IMG/VR virus record: IMGVR_UViG_3300025851_000205
Span: 1 to 25,809 of that record
Length of the DNA stretch: 25,809 nucleotides
Strand: one strand, 5' to 3'
Source of the DNA: a virus
Taxonomy: Duplodnaviria; Caudoviricetes
Shown: positions 4,763 through 20,630 of the stretch, piece after piece
How the letters are laid out: each line of letters starts with the position of its first letter
Numbering within the stretch: position 1 is the stretch's first letter
Position numbers and translations under genes: made by a program
The notes under the pieces: generated by a model
Databases searched by the model: none
Seen by the model: the letters and a program-made list of their open reading frames with translations, nothing else
What the model was told of the DNA's origin: nothing

Positions 4763-5914
4763 TTACGCTGCTTTTAAAACTTGTCTTGAACCATTGTGAC
4801 CAGGTTCCGAAATAACATCGTTAGCCTCGAGCTGTTCAACTAGCCTAGCTGCTCGGTTGTAGCCAATACGAAACTTACGTTGGATGCTTGATATTGATAC
4901 CCTGCGACTTTCAAGGATAAATGCTTCAGCTTCGTCGTATAGAGAGTCCTGCTCGTCATCTTCAGCTATTTCCTTGAGCTTTATCACTTCGTGACTACCT
5001 TCTAAGTAATCAGTGGCTTTTACGTTAAATTCGCTGAGTAAATCGTAAATAAACCTATTCAATTCACCAGACATGAGCGCAAAGTCTGCATCAAGTTTCG
5101 CTATAACATCATCACTATCAATATCATCGTTTTGCTCATGAATAACATCGAAGAACTTAAGGCGTTTAATAGATAAATCATCGTTAAGAATGAAGGACAT
5201 TGATTCATCCCATTCAAGCGCAACTTTTACAACGTACTTATCAGCATCTAAATGCTTTTTGATTTCTTCACTTGCTAGGTCTTGGTTTTTAGCACGAATA
5301 ATTGCACCATCATCACCAAGTGCATGAAGTTCAGCTTCCATTCCTAACGTGAATTTATCGCCAATACTCTTATCACTTAACCACTCTGTCATGAGTTCGT
5401 CAGGGGCTTTTTCAGGCGAAACACTTGTTACTGGTAATGTGCCAATGACTTTACGAAGTAGGGCGAGTAAATCTTCTGCTTTACCGCGGCTACTTGAATT
5501 AACAACAATGATGTTTTGTTCGGGGCATATATAAGCATGAGTATCAACAACGCGAGAGAATGCGCGGGGTAACAGCTCAAAAACAATATCTTCTTTAAAT
5601 TGTTCTCGTTCTTTTTTAGTTGCACTGCGACCCTGTTCAACTTCAAGCAATTCAACTTTAGCTTCAATCATATCTTTGATAACCGGAGCAGGAATTATTT
5701 TCTCTTCCTTTCTAGCACATATAAGCATGCTGCCATTTGATTCATGAACAGTTGAATGGCCATGCTTACCTAGTGCATTAACCCAACCAAAATGGGATTG
5801 TTCAGTTGAGCCACAAGGTGTAAATAAATGTTCAGATAGGTGCTGCTCAAGTTGCTCTACTGTTAAAGTAAATTGACGAGTAAAAGCGAAAAAATAGATA
5901 TTGTTAAACCACAT
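4763..5914 (-). CDS. rdgC: RdgC recombination-associated protein fused to a C-terminal FtsK gamma (winged-helix) domain
   Basis: RdgC signature MWFNN...F.PC...E.S..GW...LLPRAF...ADFALM. The last ~60 aa (4766-4948) DSLYDEA..F....[26 protein letters not shown]...IS...NG.RQVL match FtsK-gamma. Confidence 0.93.
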
Positions 5915-6428: not shown

Positions 6429-6680
6429 TTAGAGAGCTCCTTGCATGGCGTTTTCAGCAGGTACTATTGCGTATAAATCTTGAAGCAACGCCTTTAGTTT
6501 TAAATTAGCGTCATGCTGTTCCAAATCGATAGCTCGATTGATGTGATGACCAATGCAGATAACGCAGAAAAAGTTTAATTGGAATGAGCTTCCTATATTC
6601 ATACCAGCGCGGTTACCTGCTGATATAGCCATAGAAATGGTGTCCAATACCTTATTAACGTTTGCAGTATTTGTATGCAT
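6429..6680 (-). CDS. Small phage protein (antisense-regulated candidate)
   Basis: 83 aa with GGAGAG RBS. The N-terminus MHTNTANVN encodes an opposite-strand promoter-like sequence. Confidence 0.75.
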   Translation of the reverse strand: MHTNTANVNKVLDTISMAISAGNRAGMNIGSSFQLNFFCVICIGHHINRAIDLEQHDANLKLKALLQDLYAIVPAENAMQGAL

Positions 6681-6689
6681 AATGTACTC

Positions 6690-6766
6690 TCCGTTTGTCA
6701 GCCCGATAACGTTTGTTATCGGTGGTTAATGGCCGCTACTCCACCAAGAACTGCGGCCGTTTTCTT
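6690..6766 (+). ncRNA. Putative Sar/OOP-like small antisense RNA (two hairpins, ends in terminator)
   Basis: + strand promoter candidates TTAACG-17-CATAAT (6655-6683) or TTGCAG-17-TACTCT (6662-6690). Hairpin CCGATAAC/GTTATCGG, then GGCCGC..GCGGCC followed by GTTTTCTT. Confidence 0.45.
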
Positions 6767-7076
6767 AATGGCTAATAGAATCAGCCATCTTTTGAATTTT
6801 CTCTTCTGCTATACCTCTAACAAGTAACCTCAGCTCACTCATTGCGAATAAATCACCTGTGATTAGCTTGTAAAGAATAGGGATAATCAACTCGTTTTGA
6901 CTTACTGAAATCAATATATCGTCAAGTTCAATTTCACCAAAAGTGCTATCACCTAATCCGTTAATGATTAATTCATTAATTGCACGTTCATTAATTAATT
7001 CAATCGTGTTTATTTTGTTATCTGCGTAAGCGTTGATTGAAACTTGTTCTGTAACAAAATAATTCATGATAATCAT
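6765..7076 (-). CDS. First gene of leftward early operon, acidic hypothetical protein
   Basis: 103-aa ORF directly downstream of the PL-like promoter. Confidence 0.75.
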   Translation of the reverse strand: MIIMNYFVTEQVSINAYADNKINTIELINERAINELIINGLGDSTFGEIELDDILISVSQNELIIPILYKLITGDLFAMSELRLLVRGIAEEKIQKMADSISH

Positions 7077-7144
7077 CCCTTTATAGTTAATAAACTGTTA
7101 ATGTTTATGCTTGTTTTATGTGTTTTTTTGTTCTTATGGGATTT

Positions 7145-7173
7145 AATATAGATTAACTGACTCACATATGCAA
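7145..7173 (-). promoter_or_regulatory. PL-like sigma70 promoter
   Basis: Minus strand TTGCAT (7173-7168), 17-nt spacer, TATATT (7150-7145). It is overlapped by an operator-like site. Confidence 0.6.
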
Positions 7174-7196
7174 CAATTAAATGAATCACATGTGAT
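7160..7196. promoter_or_regulatory. OL-like operators
   Basis: ACTCACATATG (7160-7170) and palindrome ATCACATGTGAT (7185-7196) share the TCAYATRTGA core with the site between repressor and cro. Confidence 0.6.
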
Positions 7197-7331
7197 CTAT
7201 TTTAGCTTAACTAGATCTTTGATGGACTAGAGTGAGGATATTTTGTAATATGTGATTTAGTTATATTTATTTTATTAACACTCAATTAGCTAATTGAACT
7301 TAATAACCCAATAATTAGATAAGGAATAAAA

Positions 7332-7586
7332 ATGCAAGTACAAAGTTCTGAAGTCGGTACAAAACCGACAACGACTAACATTGCTCGACCGGTTAGTGAG
7401 AGCGCAACAGAAAATGAAGAAGTATCTACTGAACAAGTAGTTACAAGCAACACTGACAATGTTACATTATCAGCAGAAGCAATTGCTTTGTCTGAACAAT
7501 CCGCGGCGGATGATAATGGTGGTGATGGTAATGGTGAGCTACCTGAACGACCACCTAAGAAACCACCAGAAACGGAAACACCGTAA
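7332..7586 (+). CDS. 84-aa acidic, disordered peptide with FlgM-like D.V.LS.EA..L motif and Gly/Pro-rich tail
   Basis: AAGGAA RBS. T/S/E-rich N-terminus, DNVTLSAEAIALS (7455-7493), C-terminal GGDGNGELPERPPKKPPETETP. No Sec signal. Confidence 0.75.
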   Translation: MQVQSSEVGTKPTTTNIARPVSESATENEEVSTEQVVTSNTDNVTLSAEAIALSEQSAADDNGGDGNGELPERPPKKPPETETP

Positions 7587-7608
7587 AATTTAATCATGGA
7601 CAGGTAAA

Positions 7609-8187
7609 ATGGAATTTAGCTTAGTAAGTTTATTTGGTTATACAATGGATAACTGGTTTATTTGTTTTGGTATCTTAGGCGTGGCATTAAGCGCCCATAT
7701 CAAAAGAGATAGGATGATTATTTTTGCTGTTACCTTATGTTCAATAATGGGTCATTTCATCAGTCCTTATTTTTATGGTATGGGTGATGCTTGGAAATAT
7801 TGGGGGTTATTTGGCTCATCAATTGGCTTCATAAAATTAGCATGTATTATTTTTCTAATTAAAATGAACCCTTTATATCGTACAAAACTCGCTGAGTGGC
7901 TAGGTTTTATTTATATCTTTCAGGTGGGATTTCACGGCTTAAATCATCTTGATTATGCCGTTCTTAGGACCGATTACTTGACAGTCCCGTTATTCTCTAT
8001 TGAGTTGTTCGGGGAATCTATCAAATACAATGCTTATAAAGTGGTAGTTCAATCTTTAAATGGTATGGCATTGCTTTCAATATATGGAAATTGGTTTTTA
8101 AAACTATTAAATCACGGAGAAAATAATGGAGATTGTCAGTCTAATTCTGATAGTAGTTCTTTTTACGCTCGGACTCGCAGCATATAA
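7609..8187 (+). CDS. Polytopic (~5 TM) inner-membrane protein of unknown function
   Basis: About five hydrophobic segments, with polar residues (Q,H,N,H,D) in the fourth. CAGGT RBS. Confidence 0.8.
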   Translation: MEFSLVSLFGYTMDNWFICFGILGVALSAHIKRDRMIIFAVTLCSIMGHFISPYFYGMGDAWKYWGLFGSSIGFIKLACIIFLIKMNPLYRTKLAEWLGFIYIFQVGFHGLNHLDYAVLRTDYLTVPLFSIELFGESIKYNAYKVVVQSLNGMALLSIYGNWFLKLLNHGENNGDCQSNSDSSSFYARTRSI

Positions 8188-8407
8188 GATTGTTGTAGTA
8201 TCACCAAGGCAAAAACAAGAAAAATTAACAGAAAAGTTACATTGCTGGGTGAAAAGTTTTGATAAATTAGATTCATTGCAAGATAGAGAGAAACGCGCCC
8301 TCTGCTTACATGAATTATTAGTTGAACGTCGAGTTTTACTTAAAGAGTTAAACGAAGATGTTGATTTGAAAGCCCTGATGCATGAGTTAAATTGTATTGA
8401 GGTGTAA
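8126..8407 (+). CDS. Single-pass membrane-anchored small protein
   Basis: N-terminal TM (IVSLILIVVLFTLGLAAY), charged helical C-terminus, GGAGA RBS. Overlaps the upstream gene by 62 nt. Confidence 0.7.
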   Translation: MEIVSLILIVVLFTLGLAAYKIVVVSPRQKQEKLTEKLHCWVKSFDKLDSLQDREKRALCLHELLVERRVLLKELNEDVDLKALMHELNCIEV

Positions 8408-8414
8408 TTTAATT

Positions 8415-8439
8415 GTTGCGATATCGACAATATCGCAAC
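8415..8439. terminator. Hairpin between convergent genes (possible bidirectional terminator)
   Basis: GTTGCGATAT-CGACA-ATATCGCAAC perfect 10-bp stem with AT-rich flanks. Confidence 0.6.
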
Positions 8440-8447
8440 GTTAATTT

Positions 8448-8945
8448 TTAATTGTCTTTCTTTCTTCTAGCTATAGTTCTATAACCACTCACTGACATCT
8501 TTATAAACTGCCCTACATCAAAACTACCCGAGTTATCAGCTAGTACAGTGTATGCATCTTGTGCACAGTCAATTAAGATAGAATGATCAATATCATAATA
8601 TTTTGCTATCGCGTTTCCGTCGGTATCGAACCCCTGAGCGCTATATAAATAAAAATAATCCTCTGAAGCTAGATGTAAACCAGAGGCGATCTTTATTAAT
8701 GTACTTCCTGAACTGTCGGATGCTGCAGTCATAACCCGCTGTATTTGAGCTTTGCTTAACGACAAATCTTTTTCGGACACAAGAAGACTTAAAGCTTGTG
8801 CATTTTTTATGTTATGCACATCCATAAGCTGTTCTACATTCATCTGTAAAATCAATTTTGGGATGTCATCAACTAGATCAGCTGGCATTTTACTAGCAAC
8901 TTTTCTAGGTAGTGTCGAAAAAAGTGTATCGATCCAATTTTTCAT
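8448..8945 (-). CDS. CI-position XRE/Cro-C1 HTH repressor lacking S24 peptidase domain
   Basis: HTH-like segment LQMNVEQLM...AQALS...LSKAQIQRV......S.STLIKIASGL. Divergent from a cro-like gene with a palindrome between them. Confidence 0.7.
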   Translation of the reverse strand: MKNWIDTLFSTLPRKVASKMPADLVDDIPKLILQMNVEQLMDVHNIKNAQALSLLVSEKDLSLSKAQIQRVMTAASDSSGSTLIKIASGLHLASEDYFYLYSAQGFDTDGNAIAKYYDIDHSILIDCAQDAYTVLADNSGSFDVGQFIKMSVSGYRTIARRKKDN

Positions 8946-8972
8946 TCTTGCTTATGCGCTCTATTTACGTTA

Positions 8973-8996
8973 AATTGACTCATATGTGAGTTAATT
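8973..8996. promoter_or_regulatory. OR-like operator
   Basis: Near-palindrome AATTGACTCATATGTGAGTTAATT in the repressor/cro intergenic gap. Confidence 0.7.
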
Positions 8997-9018
8997 GAAC
9001 AAATTATTAACTAGTTAA

Positions 9019-9258
9019 ATGGTAGCAGATATGAAACAAAAGTCACGCATTAAAGCTCTAGCTGATTCAGAGATGATTAATCTTCAAGAACGATTGCGGG
9101 ATCTTCCTTATGGGGGGTTAGCAAAGTTAAGCCAGTTGACCGGAATTGGTAAGGCCTCACTTTCACGATTCAGAAATGGAAAGGTTATAGGTTCGGATAA
9201 ATTCAAAGTGATTGAAGTTGCTATGAGAGATGAATCTATGAGGGATAAAGCTGCTTAA
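9019..9258 (+). CDS. Cro-like HTH protein (start may be 9031)
   Basis: GGLAKLSQLTGIGKASLSRFRNG HTH, divergent from the repressor. Confidence 0.8.
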   Translation: MVADMKQKSRIKALADSEMINLQERLRDLPYGGLAKLSQLTGIGKASLSRFRNGKVIGSDKFKVIEVAMRDESMRDKAA

Positions 9259-9290
9259 TCAACCGAAAATAACAATAAATGAGGACCTGT

Positions 9291-9797
9291 ATGAACTTAT
9301 CTTTAAATGAAATTGAAGTAATGAACGAACTTCAAAGAGAATACCCGAAACAATCCAGCATAAAGAAACTGATGGTAGTAACTAAGCGTGACCGAAGTGT
9401 GATTAAAAACGCTTTGGTAGGGCTTAAAACGTTAAACCTTGCCTCTACAACTGATAAGGGCGAAGTATATCTATTGAAAGCCGGCAAAGAACATTTAGGT
9501 TTAAATTCCACAGGGAATTCTCTGGCAAAAATATCCGTTTCCACAAAAACGAGTTCATTAACGCTTGCGTCTTCTTCACCAGGTAAAGAAATTCAAAACA
9601 AGTCTGATTCAATCGAACAAGCTTTTATTGATTTAGAAAATAAACTTAATCAAAAGCCTGTTTCCATTGAAGATCTAGGCCTTAAACTGAACGTTCTAAA
9701 GCGTTTGTCTGTCGTGTTGGCTGATGATATCGGTGAAGTATTAACGTCGATTTCTAGCGATTTATCAAGCATGAACACGCAAGTTGAGGTCGCATGA
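9291..9797 (+). CDS. Winged-helix DNA-binding protein in cII position
   Basis: LSLNEIEVMNEL...SIKKL...KRDRSVIKNALVGL...G.VYL...G is MarR-like wHTH. GAGGA RBS precedes ATG 9291. Confidence 0.65.
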   Translation: MNLSLNEIEVMNELQREYPKQSSIKKLMVVTKRDRSVIKNALVGLKTLNLASTTDKGEVYLLKAGKEHLGLNSTGNSLAKISVSTKTSSLTLASSSPGKEIQNKSDSIEQAFIDLENKLNQKPVSIEDLGLKLNVLKRLSVVLADDIGEVLTSISSDLSSMNTQVEVA

Positions 9798-11810: not shown

Positions 11811-13031
11811 TTGTTATTAGTTCACGCAAAAATTACTGATACTTCAATAGCTGCACATGTACCGTTAGCGGTGGATCGGTTGCGAGACAATTTGAACCCG
11901 TTAATTCAATTCAGGTTCAGCAGTAATAGAGCAAAAGGCTCTTGGTTTATATACCACAAGAGCTGGAAAAAAGTCGGTGAATGGCCACAAAGCAAAACCC
12001 GAGATGTAAGGAATGGTTTTGGCGCTTTATTAGCAAAATTACAGGACAAGCAAGAAGCAAAAGTTACTAAAGACTGCTTTGTTTTCGTGAGCGATTTACT
12101 TACCTGGTATAACGAACGTATGGAAGGAAATGCGAATTTAAGCACTCAACGAAAAAAAGATATTAAAAGTTCTGTTAAGTGCCATTTGCAATTTAGGCTA
12201 GGTAACGTAGAAATTGCAGATATCGATAAAAATTTAATTGATAAGCGCTTTATGTGGCCATTGCAAAAAGTATTAGCAAAAAGCTCAGTGGTTAAAAAGT
12301 TTCATATGCTTAAAGCCGCTTTTACGGATGCTTATGACTTAGATTTATTGCCAATTCATCCTATGGCCACAATGAAAGTTTCAGACTTTGGTGATTTTTC
12401 GGAAGATCCTAAAGAGTCTCTTTTAAAGCCTCGAATGGTCCCCGCTTTACTTGATGAGATGCAAGAGCAGAAAGTTTACATACGGGTTATTTGCATGCTT
12501 ATGCTGAGTTTAGGTACACGAATTGGAGAAACCATTTTAGCGAAGTGGCGTCACTTTAATTTGTCGTTTGATCCTGCTTGGGATATCCCCAGAAAAGATA
12601 CTAAAACAAAACAAGAAATCACCATTCATTTACCACCTGAAGTAGTTTCGTTATTAGTTGAATGGAAAGCTTATCAACGAAAGTGTAAATACCAAGGCGT
12701 ATATTTATTCCCTCATTTAAGTGATAGCAAACTTAGTATTCCATACGAAACGGTTAGGCGTGAAATTCATTTATTTAGTGTCGGTGAATGGCATTCTCAT
12801 GATTTACGAAAGTGTGCTCGTATATGTTGGGAGGAGCAAGGTGTTGATGGATTAGTTGCTGAACGAATGCTAAATCATGAGCTTGGCAAAACAACTCGAG
12901 CATATACAGGTAAGGCTTACGATTTAAGATTAAAGGCTTTAGTAGGTCATTGTGACTGGTTAGTGAAGCAAAAAGAAAACTGTTTTTTACTTGGTCTAGA
13001 CGTGGTTCAGCCCAAGCAGTGCGAACAGTAA
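11811..13031 (+). CDS. Second tyrosine recombinase (nin-region integrase-like)
   Basis: Full catalytic set R (GTRIGE), K (DTKT), HDLRK, LNH, Y (RAY). N-terminal arm-like and SAM-like regions. TTG start after AGAGGA. Confidence 0.9.
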   Translation: MLLVHAKITDTSIAAHVPLAVDRLRDNLNPLIQFRFSSNRAKGSWFIYHKSWKKVGEWPQSKTRDVRNGFGALLAKLQDKQEAKVTKDCFVFVSDLLTWYNERMEGNANLSTQRKKDIKSSVKCHLQFRLGNVEIADIDKNLIDKRFMWPLQKVLAKSSVVKKFHMLKAAFTDAYDLDLLPIHPMATMKVSDFGDFSEDPKESLLKPRMVPALLDEMQEQKVYIRVICMLMLSLGTRIGETILAKWRHFNLSFDPAWDIPRKDTKTKQEITIHLPPEVVSLLVEWKAYQRKCKYQGVYLFPHLSDSKLSIPYETVRREIHLFSVGEWHSHDLRKCARICWEEQGVDGLVAERMLNHELGKTTRAYTGKAYDLRLKALVGHCDWLVKQKENCFLLGLDVVQPKQCEQ

Positions 13032-14064: not shown

Positions 14065-14380
14065 GCTCAAGCAATGGGGCAACTTTTGGTGTAGACAAGA
14101 GGTTGGTCAAGGATACGCCAGCAAATCGAATGTAGATCAATTAAGAGAAACTTTAGAAACAGGCTGTTCTATACAGGGAACAGGTCACCTGGTGAATGGT
14201 TCAGATAGTATATTTGTACCTGAACATATAGCGACAACCGATAAGTTACTAGAGTTACTTCCTCAAAAATGCAAAATAGCCGTTAGGCAGCGTTATATCA
14301 ATAAGGGAAAGATCATTTATTTTACTAACAAAAAAGATTTCTTATTTTGGGTGGGGAAAGCAGAGCGAGAATTGATGTAG
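14036..14380 (+). CDS. Q-like late antiterminator
   Basis: R.EL..WG.W...GY pattern and LP......V..RY. Last early gene before the late promoter/terminator. Start ATG 14036 after GAGGA. Confidence 0.6.
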   Translation: MRTIKDVRFELKQWGNFWCRQEVGQGYASKSNVDQLRETLETGCSIQGTGHLVNGSDSIFVPEHIATTDKLLELLPQKCKIAVRQRYINKGKIIYFTNKKDFLFWVGKAERELM

Positions 14381-14436
14381 TTTTATTTAACTATGTTGTG
14401 ATATTTGTTAAGTTAAAGAAAAAAAAGGATTTTAAA

Positions 14437-15519
14437 ATGAATAATAACAAAATAACTCTGATTTGCTTGTCTTTGTTTATATTACTGGTTGGGTGTTTTA
14501 ATAACGAAAACTCAAAACCTATCTTTTCTAATAATGAAGAATTGGTTTTATATTTCCATCAACATGGCGGTTATGAATATATTTCCGATGAAGATAAGGC
14601 TGTCTACAGTAAGCTTGATTTTGATAAAGAATGGAGTGTATCCGACAAATTAATTTCAGGTCCAACTTCAAAGTATTTTAAGTTAGAAAAACATCTATAT
14701 AGCTTAAGAGTATTTAAAGCCAAATCTTCCACATCTGAAGAAATCGTAATAGAAACATTTTTTCCAAAAAGTTTAACTTTGTTTTATGGCCTGAAGTTTA
14801 ACAACAAAGATGATGTTGAAAAATTGGATAATTTACTCAGTTACTATAATTCAGCAGACTTTAACAATAATGACCTTGAGTTCAAATCTTCAGAAAAATC
14901 TTACCGAATCAATGAAACGGGGATTTACCTCGATTTAAATGCTCATAAAAAGCGGCAGCAAAACCGAAGAAAAATATCAAAGTTAGTAAAAACAATAAAC
15001 GAAGAACTTGAAATTCCTGATAGCTTTTTTTTAGCGGGTCAAAAGAGTTCCCAGAATGAGTTTGATACTTTCCTATCACAGGTTGTTGGCGTAGAAGAAA
15101 AGTTAGAAAGACTTAGAACTATAAAAGAAAAAATTCAAAGATTGGATCCTGATTACTTTACGGTTCTTATTGATAACGATATAAAAGCATTTTCAAAAGC
15201 ACTAATTGTTAATAAAACCTTTATAGATTTAAAGCAAAATCTAGAGTTTAGTGATATTGAAATAGCTAAATCAACAAGAGGGAAAATGTCTGTGTTTGGT
15301 GGCTTTACTTACAAAGGAAAGAGTAAAATCAATGCGGCATATTGTTTAGTTAAATTCTTAAATGAAAGTGGTGAAATTATAGGTCAGCAAGAGATGAGCT
15401 TAGCCTCAAATCTTTTTGAGGGAATGAGGGGGAGTGTTGGCTTTTCTATAGAAGATAGTTATGTAGCTTCATTGGCTAAATCAGTCATATTGGAACCATC
15501 AAGAGTGCTTGTGTTTTAA
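14437..15519 (+). CDS. Lipoprotein moron with possible C-terminal FxLYD-like domain
   Basis: Signal II MNNNKITLICLSLFILLVG-C. Very AT-rich. C-terminal V.G.F...G......V.FLNESGEIIG pattern. Confidence 0.75.
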   Translation: MNNNKITLICLSLFILLVGCFNNENSKPIFSNNEELVLYFHQHGGYEYISDEDKAVYSKLDFDKEWSVSDKLISGPTSKYFKLEKHLYSLRVFKAKSSTSEEIVIETFFPKSLTLFYGLKFNNKDDVEKLDNLLSYYNSADFNNNDLEFKSSEKSYRINETGIYLDLNAHKKRQQNRRKISKLVKTINEELEIPDSFFLAGQKSSQNEFDTFLSQVVGVEEKLERLRTIKEKIQRLDPDYFTVLIDNDIKAFSKALIVNKTFIDLKQNLEFSDIEIAKSTRGKMSVFGGFTYKGKSKINAAYCLVKFLNESGEIIGQQEMSLASNLFEGMRGSVGFSIEDSYVASLAKSVILEPSRVLVF

Positions 15520-19645: not shown

Positions 19646-19995
19646 TGAGTGCTAATGAAATTTATTTTAAGGGCCATGATAATGTAATCAATCTGCAGTA
19701 TATCTATGATGGCTTAGCTTATGAGTTTCTAGATCAAGGCGCGATAGATTTACATATCATCCTGAAAAGCAAAACATCCGATACCACGTACACCAAGACC
19801 AAGCTGTTAAACGCTGGTGTTGTAGTCTTCGACAACAATGGAAACATCACCTTAGCCCTAGGTAAAGAAGGTGATGTTCCTGAAGGTGCTTATGAAGTAA
19901 CTGGCATAGTAAAAGGCGTTAATGAGGCATCTAAAGTGATTATAGATAAGAGTATTAGAAAGTCTCAGCTAAAGATAAAAGCAATTGAAGTCTAG
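19645..19995 (+). CDS. Beta-rich hypothetical structural protein
   Basis: Coupled ORF. G.I.L.L.....P.G.Y pattern reminiscent of Ig/BppU-like folds. Confidence 0.55.
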   Translation: MSANEIYFKGHDNVINLQYIYDGLAYEFLDQGAIDLHIILKSKTSDTTYTKTKLLNAGVVVFDNNGNITLALGKEGDVPEGAYEVTGIVKGVNEASKVIIDKSIRKSQLKIKAIEV

Positions 19996-20630
19996 TGTCC
20001 TCATTCACGCTAAACATCAACACCACTGATGTCATAAGGCAAGTTGATAAAACCTTAAAGAACTATGATCGTATCGTAACTCGAGCGGTATCGATGGGCA
20101 TCAATAGAACTATCAGGCATGTACAGACTAAAGTGGTGAGAGCCATAGCGGACGAAACTGGTTATAAGCAAAAGCTTGTAAGAGATAGTTTGTGGTTAAT
20201 GCCCTCAAATGTGAACACGTTAACCGCTCATATAGAAGCCAGGCGTCGAGGCGAGGCTATCAACCTGATAGAGTTTGTACGTAAGAACAGACAGACCCCC
20301 GCATTCTTTAGGCGTAGATATAAGAGCAACAGTAAGCGCAGAGGCTACAGTCGCGGTCAGTTCAAGTATCGAGGCGTTGAAGCTAACGCATGGAATGAGA
20401 CTAAGACATACCGAGGCACCTTTGTTGGCCGTGATAAGAAGGGCAACCTGAAGGTATTCAAGCGAACAGGTAATAGCAAAAGCAAAGTCACGTTAGTATC
20501 AGCACCATCAATACCATCAACCTTTGTTCAGTCTCAGACCATGAGATACCTAGAGCGCGTAGCTAAGGGCAGGTTTGGTATAGAGTTTGAGCGAGCAGCA
20601 GCACATCTAATTAGAACAGCAAGAAAATAA
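19995..20630 (+). CDS. Lambda gpZ-like minor tail/tail-completion protein
   Basis: RA...INRT...V.T...R.I....G.K..LVR and F...G...VFKR.G.......P motifs. Highly basic. Confidence 0.75.
   Translation: MSSFTLNINTTDVIRQVDKTLKNYDRIVTRAVSMGINRTIRHVQTKVVRAIADETGYKQKLVRDSLWLMPSNVNTLTAHIEARRRGEAINLIEFVRKNRQTPAFFRRRYKSNSKRRGYSRGQFKYRGVEANAWNETKTYRGTFVGRDKKGNLKVFKRTGNSKSKVTLVSAPSIPSTFVQSQTMRYLERVAKGRFGIEFERAAAHLIRTARK

Follow-up and report, generated by a model that had tools for sequence, protein, structure and literature searches.

In the arbitrium system (AimP-AimR-AimX) of Bacillus phages, a pro-peptide is encoded beside its cognate receptor, peptide and receptor types are matched, and the genes lie next to the lysis/lysogeny switch. 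Phage peptide communication is established for Bacillus-type hosts. In phage lambda, the rexAB genes lie between the left operator and the repressor gene, include membrane proteins, and are read in the same direction as cI. Accounts of arbitrium are given in PMC12768286 and PMC10075063. We found no equivalent phage peptide communication described for Proteobacteria in the part of the literature at hand, and no description of the cassette family reported here in a search that covered listings and the starts of abstracts.

The cassette lies in a 25,809-nt stretch of DNA (the window, by which we mean this whole stretch), a virus record with a lambdoid layout based on Pfam and PHROG annotation of its ORFs: an integrase and left-arm genes on the minus strand are followed by the cassette, a 165-aa repressor-like gene on the minus strand, a Cro-like gene, O-like replication genes, and lysis and head genes. 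The nearest homologues of the predicted receptor (~50% identity, E 3e-45) are found in two genomes from the family of a Glaciecola MAG, from which we infer that the host is a marine gammaproteobacterium. Elsewhere in the window, we noted a second tyrosine integrase at 11811-13031, within the replication/late region and possibly an inserted element (the other integrase is at 1-1299); an RdgC fused to a C-terminal FtsK-gamma domain at 4763-5914, of which the related locus L132 has a relative of the same length; a 390-aa low-GC (~30%) ORF at 14347-15519, ahead of the endolysin gene, which has no Pfam or PHROG match and resembles moron cargo; and, at 19995-20630, a tail-completion (gpZ-like) gene with several unknown genes ahead of the terminase genes, unlike the lambda order.

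The first-pass annotation described three co-oriented genes that converge on the repressor and share a hairpin with it, and this arrangement is indeed found. Gene 1 (7332-7586), identified by its ORF and by linkage across the family, encodes an 84-aa precursor peptide with a FlgM-like leader and a Gly/Pro core; gene 2 (7609-8187) encodes a 192-aa five-helix inner-membrane protein that is the predicted receptor, based on an AlphaFold2 model and conserved residues; and gene 3 (8126-8407) encodes a 93-aa single-pass protein with a predicted cytoplasmic helical domain, the predicted transducer. All three are on the plus strand, and face the repressor-like gene at 8448-8945 on the minus strand. The terminator-like hairpin at 8414-8440, in the gap between gene 3 and the repressor gene, is a candidate bidirectional terminator, and a similar hairpin is present in locus L003; an Rfam search of 6600-9400 gave no match. 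The start of gene 3 overlaps the final 62 nt of gene 2, and an overlap of 62-65 nt is also found in the close relatives L003 and L004.

Analysis of related loci confirmed that these three genes are a real, conserved and widespread cassette family. Direct homologue searches were nearly empty, with 1 protein for the peptide and 5-7 proteins for the receptor, and a search with a narrow alignment (A2) recovered 7 proteins among 1.84 billion representatives. Similarly, tblastn against the GenBank phage collection gave no match for four receptors or the repressor, and a core DNA pattern yielded no new cassette among 120 loci in viral contigs, where a helicase-like family swamped the matches. Two metagenome loci keep the gene order, with peptides of 77 aa (L003) and 27 aa (L004). 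An unrelated flanking gene used as a marker led to three more phages with the same layout, in which the peptide has 77 aa and a FlgM-like motif (L131), 15 aa (L132), or three tandem cores (L135); no cassette was found beside the marker at L133 and L136 (L134 was left out of this check). The sequences of these three phages are barely or not alignable with the window cassette, and the A2 profile is not significant against the single sequences of L131 and L132 and gives E 0.005 for L135; we consider their receptors homologous because of a joint receptor profile and shared W/Y/N columns. Searched against 301 genomes of one family, this joint profile gave 79 matches in 46 of them; in the order, 34 of 401 genomes had a match. 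Wide flanks were taken for 60 regions with the stronger matches, and about 12 of the weakest were omitted. PHROGs family phrog_31674, of unknown function, is matched by 55 of 76 receptor sequences (best E 4e-15), and gene 2 of the window, which has no direct match, is linked to it through the family profile. Nothing consistent was found for the receptor family in NCBIfam and Pfam.

If the peptide and receptor act together, a Gly/Pro peptide gene should accompany homologues of gene 2, as had been proposed. An upstream motif ORF that ends between -150 and +45 nt from the gene start accompanies 59 of the 75 receptor genes and 1 of the 363 control genes (other genes of the same loci), as determined with a regular expression that was tuned post hoc and applied identically to the controls. 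Two contig ends and the second members of tandem pairs are among the misses, and for at least three misses (L184, L195 and L217) peptides were recognized on re-inspection. Receptor genes without an adjacent peptide gene are second tandem members in L200, L202 and L226, plus L223 and L250. Tandem receptor genes after a single peptide gene occur in L200, L202, L226 and L235, and one genome (G152) has 9 receptor matches. Six loci in small flhA-negative genomes (L241, L244, L246, L248, L249 and L257) have two or three tandem cassettes with slightly different cores and one HTH-like gene, an organization that suggests multi-channel sensing.

The conserved part of the precursor across the family is a core of the form G-x-G-x-G…P, with a variable leader ahead of it. 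In gene 1, this corresponds to the Gly/Pro tail that had been noted before, GGDGNGELPERPPKKPP, at residues 63-79, which is followed by five more residues; residues 63-75 (7518-7556, plus strand) form the conserved core of G[DN]GNGE..P type and are the predicted mature signal. Cores are often tandemly repeated, up to 13 times. The idea that peptide tails co-vary with receptors held up: G[DN]GNGE is found in 5 of 5 peptides of the window receptor clade versus 0 of 73 outside it, and core similarity is correlated with receptor similarity after dereplication (Mantel rho 0.23 with 43 pairs and 0.25 with 33 pairs, with 0 of 1000 permutations as high), although such co-variation can arise from simple co-inheritance alone. 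The L004 peptide, in which the core is kept and the FlgM-like part is absent, is a more telling case than the co-variation. A co-fold of receptor residues 1-170 with peptide residues 53-84 scored 0.09 (mark 0.32), a value that counts neither for nor against an interaction. A lasso-peptide core was considered and set aside, since no lasso enzymes were found nearby.

Ahead of the core, gene 1 carries the FlgM-like motif DNVTLSAEAIALS (residues 42-54; 7455-7493, plus strand), which is predicted to be part of a flagellar export leader, and a Sec-type leader is absent from the window peptide, both as reported earlier. Peptides fused to FlgM are known to be carried through the flagellar system to the outside (PMC3372961). 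We classified the leaders of 78 peptide-receptor pairs with our own regular expression and a hydropathy rule, not SignalP, and obtained 24 that are FlgM-like only, 26 that are Sec-type only, 1 that is both and 27 that are neither, of which 3 look double-glycine-like. In the single precursor with both, the FlgM-like match falls inside the signal peptide. FlgM-like and Sec leaders are thus nearly exclusive (Fisher p 7e-5, on rows that are not independent), and the FlgM-like motif is present in 24 of the 31 long precursors that lack a Sec leader, compared with 2% of shuffles. No recognisable export leader is found in 18 of the 78 precursors, among them those of the close relative L004 (27 aa) and of L132 (15 aa); the leaderless forms of 15-27 aa are those of L004, L132, L236, L237 and L240.

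The resemblance to FlgM holds against real host FlgM sequences. A profile built from the 24 leaders alone, searched against 1451 ORFs from which known cassette peptides had been removed and to which FlgM loci had been added on purpose, placed host FlgM at ranks 4, 5, 9 and 13, and retrieved missed cassette peptides at ranks 1, 2, 3, 6 and 8. The FlgM scores are low (4.5-12 bits); of the 7 FlgM matches, 4 rank among the first 13 and the other 3 are not among the 22 listed. These leaders also co-occur with flhA, which is present in 45 of 59 cassette-bearing genomes: FlgM-like leaders are found in 18 of 45 flhA-positive versus 0 of 14 flhA-negative genomes, counts that come from few independent lineages (13 of the 14 flhA-negative genomes are one receptor clade) and from genomes whose completeness is not reported. 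Along the receptor tree (FastTree), 13 changes of leader class are counted, where the minimum is 3, with 7 near-matches relabelled by eye. Thus, the likeness to FlgM that had been pointed out is real, but the FlgM-like leader is not the defining part of the precursor; it is one of several interchangeable leaders, with L004 and L132 leaderless and 26 of 78 precursors Sec-type. For this reason, the suggested reporting of flagellar state as such is unlikely, and the flagellum is more likely just the export route of the window phage. What argues most strongly for a core destined to leave the cytoplasm is that varied export-type leaders occupy the same position before a core of one kind.

Two further features of the precursors were noted. 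At L195:5889-6590, a tandem of three paralogous precursor genes, each with a FlgM-like leader, is followed downstream by one receptor gene. The Sec-type precursors of L188, L190, L193, L199, L205, L211, L216, L219, L220, L225, L226 and L235 have a Cys-x4-6-Cys motif just ahead of the core, possibly a disulfide-bonded carrier.

The product of gene 2 had been described as a protein of about five transmembrane helices, and an AlphaFold2 model based on 76 sequences (pLDDT 87, pTM 0.80; an earlier fold with 5 sequences was poor, at pLDDT 49) agrees, with helices at 5-27, 32-57, 61-86, 93-119 and 142-172 and a beta-hairpin at 127-141 in loop 4. Since loops 1 and 3 are basic, an N-out/C-in topology is predicted. 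Three columns are highly conserved, W65 (91%), Y143 (99%) and N151 (93%), and these residues, together with a Q/Y-x-D-R segment at the end of helix 4, are at or near the predicted periplasmic face in the model. Polar residues within the helices, another feature recorded earlier, are N151, H109 and H113. The model contains no kinase and no other cytoplasmic enzyme domain, and the signal must therefore pass to a partner. Fold searches gave generic helical bundles with Foldseek (best E 0.12), a designed helical binder as the best VIA-align match (Z 10.0, rmsd 3.5, 131 aligned), and unnamed clusters only in the ESM Atlas, where an automatic 'MreD' label is unsupported by Pfam. An AgrB-like maturase role was rejected, because its Cys/His residues are invariant in close relatives but not conserved family-wide. 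Gene 3, as anticipated, encodes a single-pass protein, with one helix, a basic segment after it and a predicted cytoplasmic helical domain; it lies downstream of the receptor gene in most loci, usually overlapping it, and is missing in several (L188, L193, L219, L220 and L226).

The 165-aa repressor-like HTH protein (8448-8945, minus strand), in which no S24 autocleavage domain was detected, has weak Pfam support (BetR E 0.005; its L004 relative, HTH_3 E 0.002) and is encoded divergently to the Cro-like HTH gene (9019-9258, plus strand; HTH_26 E 0.008), which is conserved in L003 and L004. The palindrome TCAYATRTGA is matched 10 times in the window, where 3.8 matches are expected. Three of these operator-like sites are found to the left of the cassette, at 7162-7171 (1 mismatch), 7186-7195 (perfect) and 7246-7255 (1 mismatch), and one lies between the repressor and Cro-like genes, at 8980-8989. 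A candidate leftward early promoter (TTGCAT-17-TATATT; 7145-7173, minus strand) has an operator between its hexamers, in a block conserved in the window, L003 and L004. A candidate cassette promoter (TGGACT-17-TAATAT; 7223-7251, plus strand) has the third operator-like site over its -10 box; its spacing and TGGA/TAnnAT pattern are the same in L003 and L004, and it is not obvious in L168. Both promoters were chosen by eye, the leftward one being absent from the list of a consensus promoter scan that was itself at chance level (10 versus 11.9). The third site has 2 mismatches in L003 and L004, where the L004 version resembles the operator variant of L004 itself, and is weak in L168. These sequence features suggest that the repressor controls the cassette. 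Inspection by eye of the sequence ahead of gene 1 revealed no sigma-28 promoter in the window, L003, L131 or L135. A search for RNA runs that contain the region listed none.

A further perfect copy of this palindrome at 1744-1753, in a gap between genes that lies upstream of those for the excisionase-like protein and the integrase, suggests repressor control of excision. In related loci, we also noted a BRCT-like 236-aa gene (by eye) on the opposite strand directly after cro (L004:3989-4699) and an extra HTH-like gene that separates the peptide gene from the left promoter region (L132:4559-4825).

Our best explanation of the cassette, for and against which we judge the probabilities evenly balanced, is that an exported peptide is sensed by the five-helix receptor, with the single-pass partner relaying the signal to the adjacent repressor, so that lysis versus lysogeny is set by the density of like-infected cells. 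Release of the repressor from the operator over the cassette promoter, upon infection or induction, would allow the cassette to be transcribed. In the window phage, the precursor would exit via the host flagellar type III apparatus by means of a leader that mimics FlgM, and in relatives by Sec-type or double-glycine-like leaders, and it would be trimmed to the Gly/Pro core. The core may then reach the periplasmic face of the cognate receptor, the predicted site of W65, the end of helix 4 and Y143. The receptor and the gene 3 protein would act jointly, with the cytoplasmic domain of the latter holding or freeing the peptidase-less repressor. If the analogy with arbitrium holds, lysogeny would become more likely as the peptide accumulates. 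The cassette encodes no protease for processing, and no route across the outer membrane for a signal from outside was found.

To examine the context of the cassette, we scanned 93 of 122 nearest-neighbour ORFs, leaving out short ones and those scanned previously. A short HTH repressor faces the cassette as its convergent neighbour in 22 of 66 loci, across unrelated receptor clades (17 by Pfam at E up to 1e-3 and 5 by a weak match or similarity to the window repressor), and all 20 of the convergent neighbours listed have 137-216 aa. No S24/LexA-type peptidase was detected in the scanned convergent neighbours; a non-SOS input is plausible because these repressors are short and lack an S24 peptidase match. 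The repressor C-terminal domains fall into several groups that are mutually unrelated, and we therefore see no shared docking domain. At least 15 of the 66 loci lie amid housekeeping genes, with nearest neighbours that include no regulator, and some are in conserved synteny, such as the order ACP phosphodiesterase-cassette-MGMT-like gene in L175, L176 and L191. The repressor is thus not an obligatory part of the cassette, and these regulator-less loci are the main result against a strict lysis/lysogeny role.

These loci, with the unrelated repressor C-terminal domains, also speak for a different output, in which the signalling is real but acts on host physiology or superinfection exclusion, and the cassette rides in a variable slot beside the repressor, the slot that holds the exclusion genes rexAB in lambda. 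We regard this alternative as unlikely, given that a convergent, peptidase-less short repressor recurs in a third of the loci and across unrelated receptor clades, and that an operator-like site lies over the candidate cassette promoter in three phages. Whatever the output, and thus under either of these two explanations, an exported peptide signal with a membrane receptor is probable.

The signalling reading can be set against an antidote/membrane-toxin system, an alternative raised in the first-pass annotation, in which the exported peptide shuts the complex of the five-helix and gene 3 proteins from the periplasm, and loss of the peptide, through a block of export or a breach of the envelope by another phage, would open the complex and abort the infection. 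Two linked membrane proteins in a rexAB-like slot and the polar residues within the helices (N151, H109 and H113) fit such a system, and cognate pairing and copies retained by hosts would suit defence as well. The multiplication of cores to as many as 13 copies and the cell-exit leaders, however, are more in keeping with a diffusible signal than with a stoichiometric antidote; some receptor genes have no adjacent peptide gene (the second tandem members and L223 and L250 above), and a cassette that is repressed in the lysogen could not protect it. We consider this alternative rather improbable. Least probable, and in our view very unlikely, is that the peptide is intracellular or released by lysis, with a FlgM-like leader that binds a flagellar chaperone or sigma factor and has no role in export: the leaderless forms of 15-27 aa and the position of the motif ~40 residues from the N terminus agree with this, but in other precursors a Sec-type signal peptide takes the place of the FlgM-like leader, the sigma-28-binding domain PF04316 is absent from the scanned peptides, and the conserved receptor residues are predicted to be periplasmic.

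The family supplies named parts and a predicted mature peptide for each receptor clade, and suggests how prophages with repressors that lack an SOS-cleavable domain get switched. In the precursors, phages provide naturally occurring candidates for cargo of the flagellar export system that is not itself flagellar, and the natural leader-swap series (FlgM-like, Sec-type and double-glycine-like) can define the flagellar export signal. We raise tentatively, as possible but somewhat doubtful, the stronger proposal that this is a kinase-free prophage peptide communication system in Gram-negatives that is unrelated to arbitrium, combining FlgM mimicry, a five-helix receptor with a single-pass transducer and a repressor that does not cleave itself, of which hosts kept copies, possibly to listen in.

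Compared with FlgM, the low-complexity N-terminal half of the peptide likewise ends in a D-x-V-x-[IL]-[ST]-x-x-A helix motif, a likeness with low profile scores, but the Gly/Pro core takes the place of the C-terminal anti-sigma domain PF04316, for which there is no Pfam match up to E 10 in the window, L003 and L131 peptides. The Agr and Com systems (AgrBDCA, ComCDE and double-glycine pheromones) resemble the cassette in the proposed exported peptide and multi-pass membrane sensor, in type-specific pairs, and in the double-glycine-like leaders of 3 relatives; in contrast to them, the cassette has no histidine kinase, response regulator, AgrB or C39 transporter, and no histidine kinase, response regulator or dedicated maturase/exporter was found in the window or among the 93 scanned nearest neighbours. 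Like rexAB, the cassette sits between the left operator region and the repressor and includes membrane proteins, but it converges on the repressor from its own candidate promoter and includes a peptide precursor, and no RexA/RexB homology was found by Pfam, PHROG or NCBIfam match. The likeness to arbitrium lies in a pro-peptide gene that adjoins the gene of its putative receptor, in pairs that appear matched in type from adjacency and co-variation. The differences are that the predicted receptor is a five-helix membrane protein, whereas that of arbitrium is an intracellular RRNPP/TPR protein (no cassette gene has a TPR/RRNPP Pfam match); that there is a single-pass partner and a Gram-negative host; and that the leader is FlgM-like, Sec-type or double-glycine-like, the Sec-type being absent in the window and present in 26-27 of 78 relatives. 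Sharing no component with Rex or Agr, and built around a receptor other than the one that defines arbitrium, the cassette would, by analogy, still work like arbitrium.
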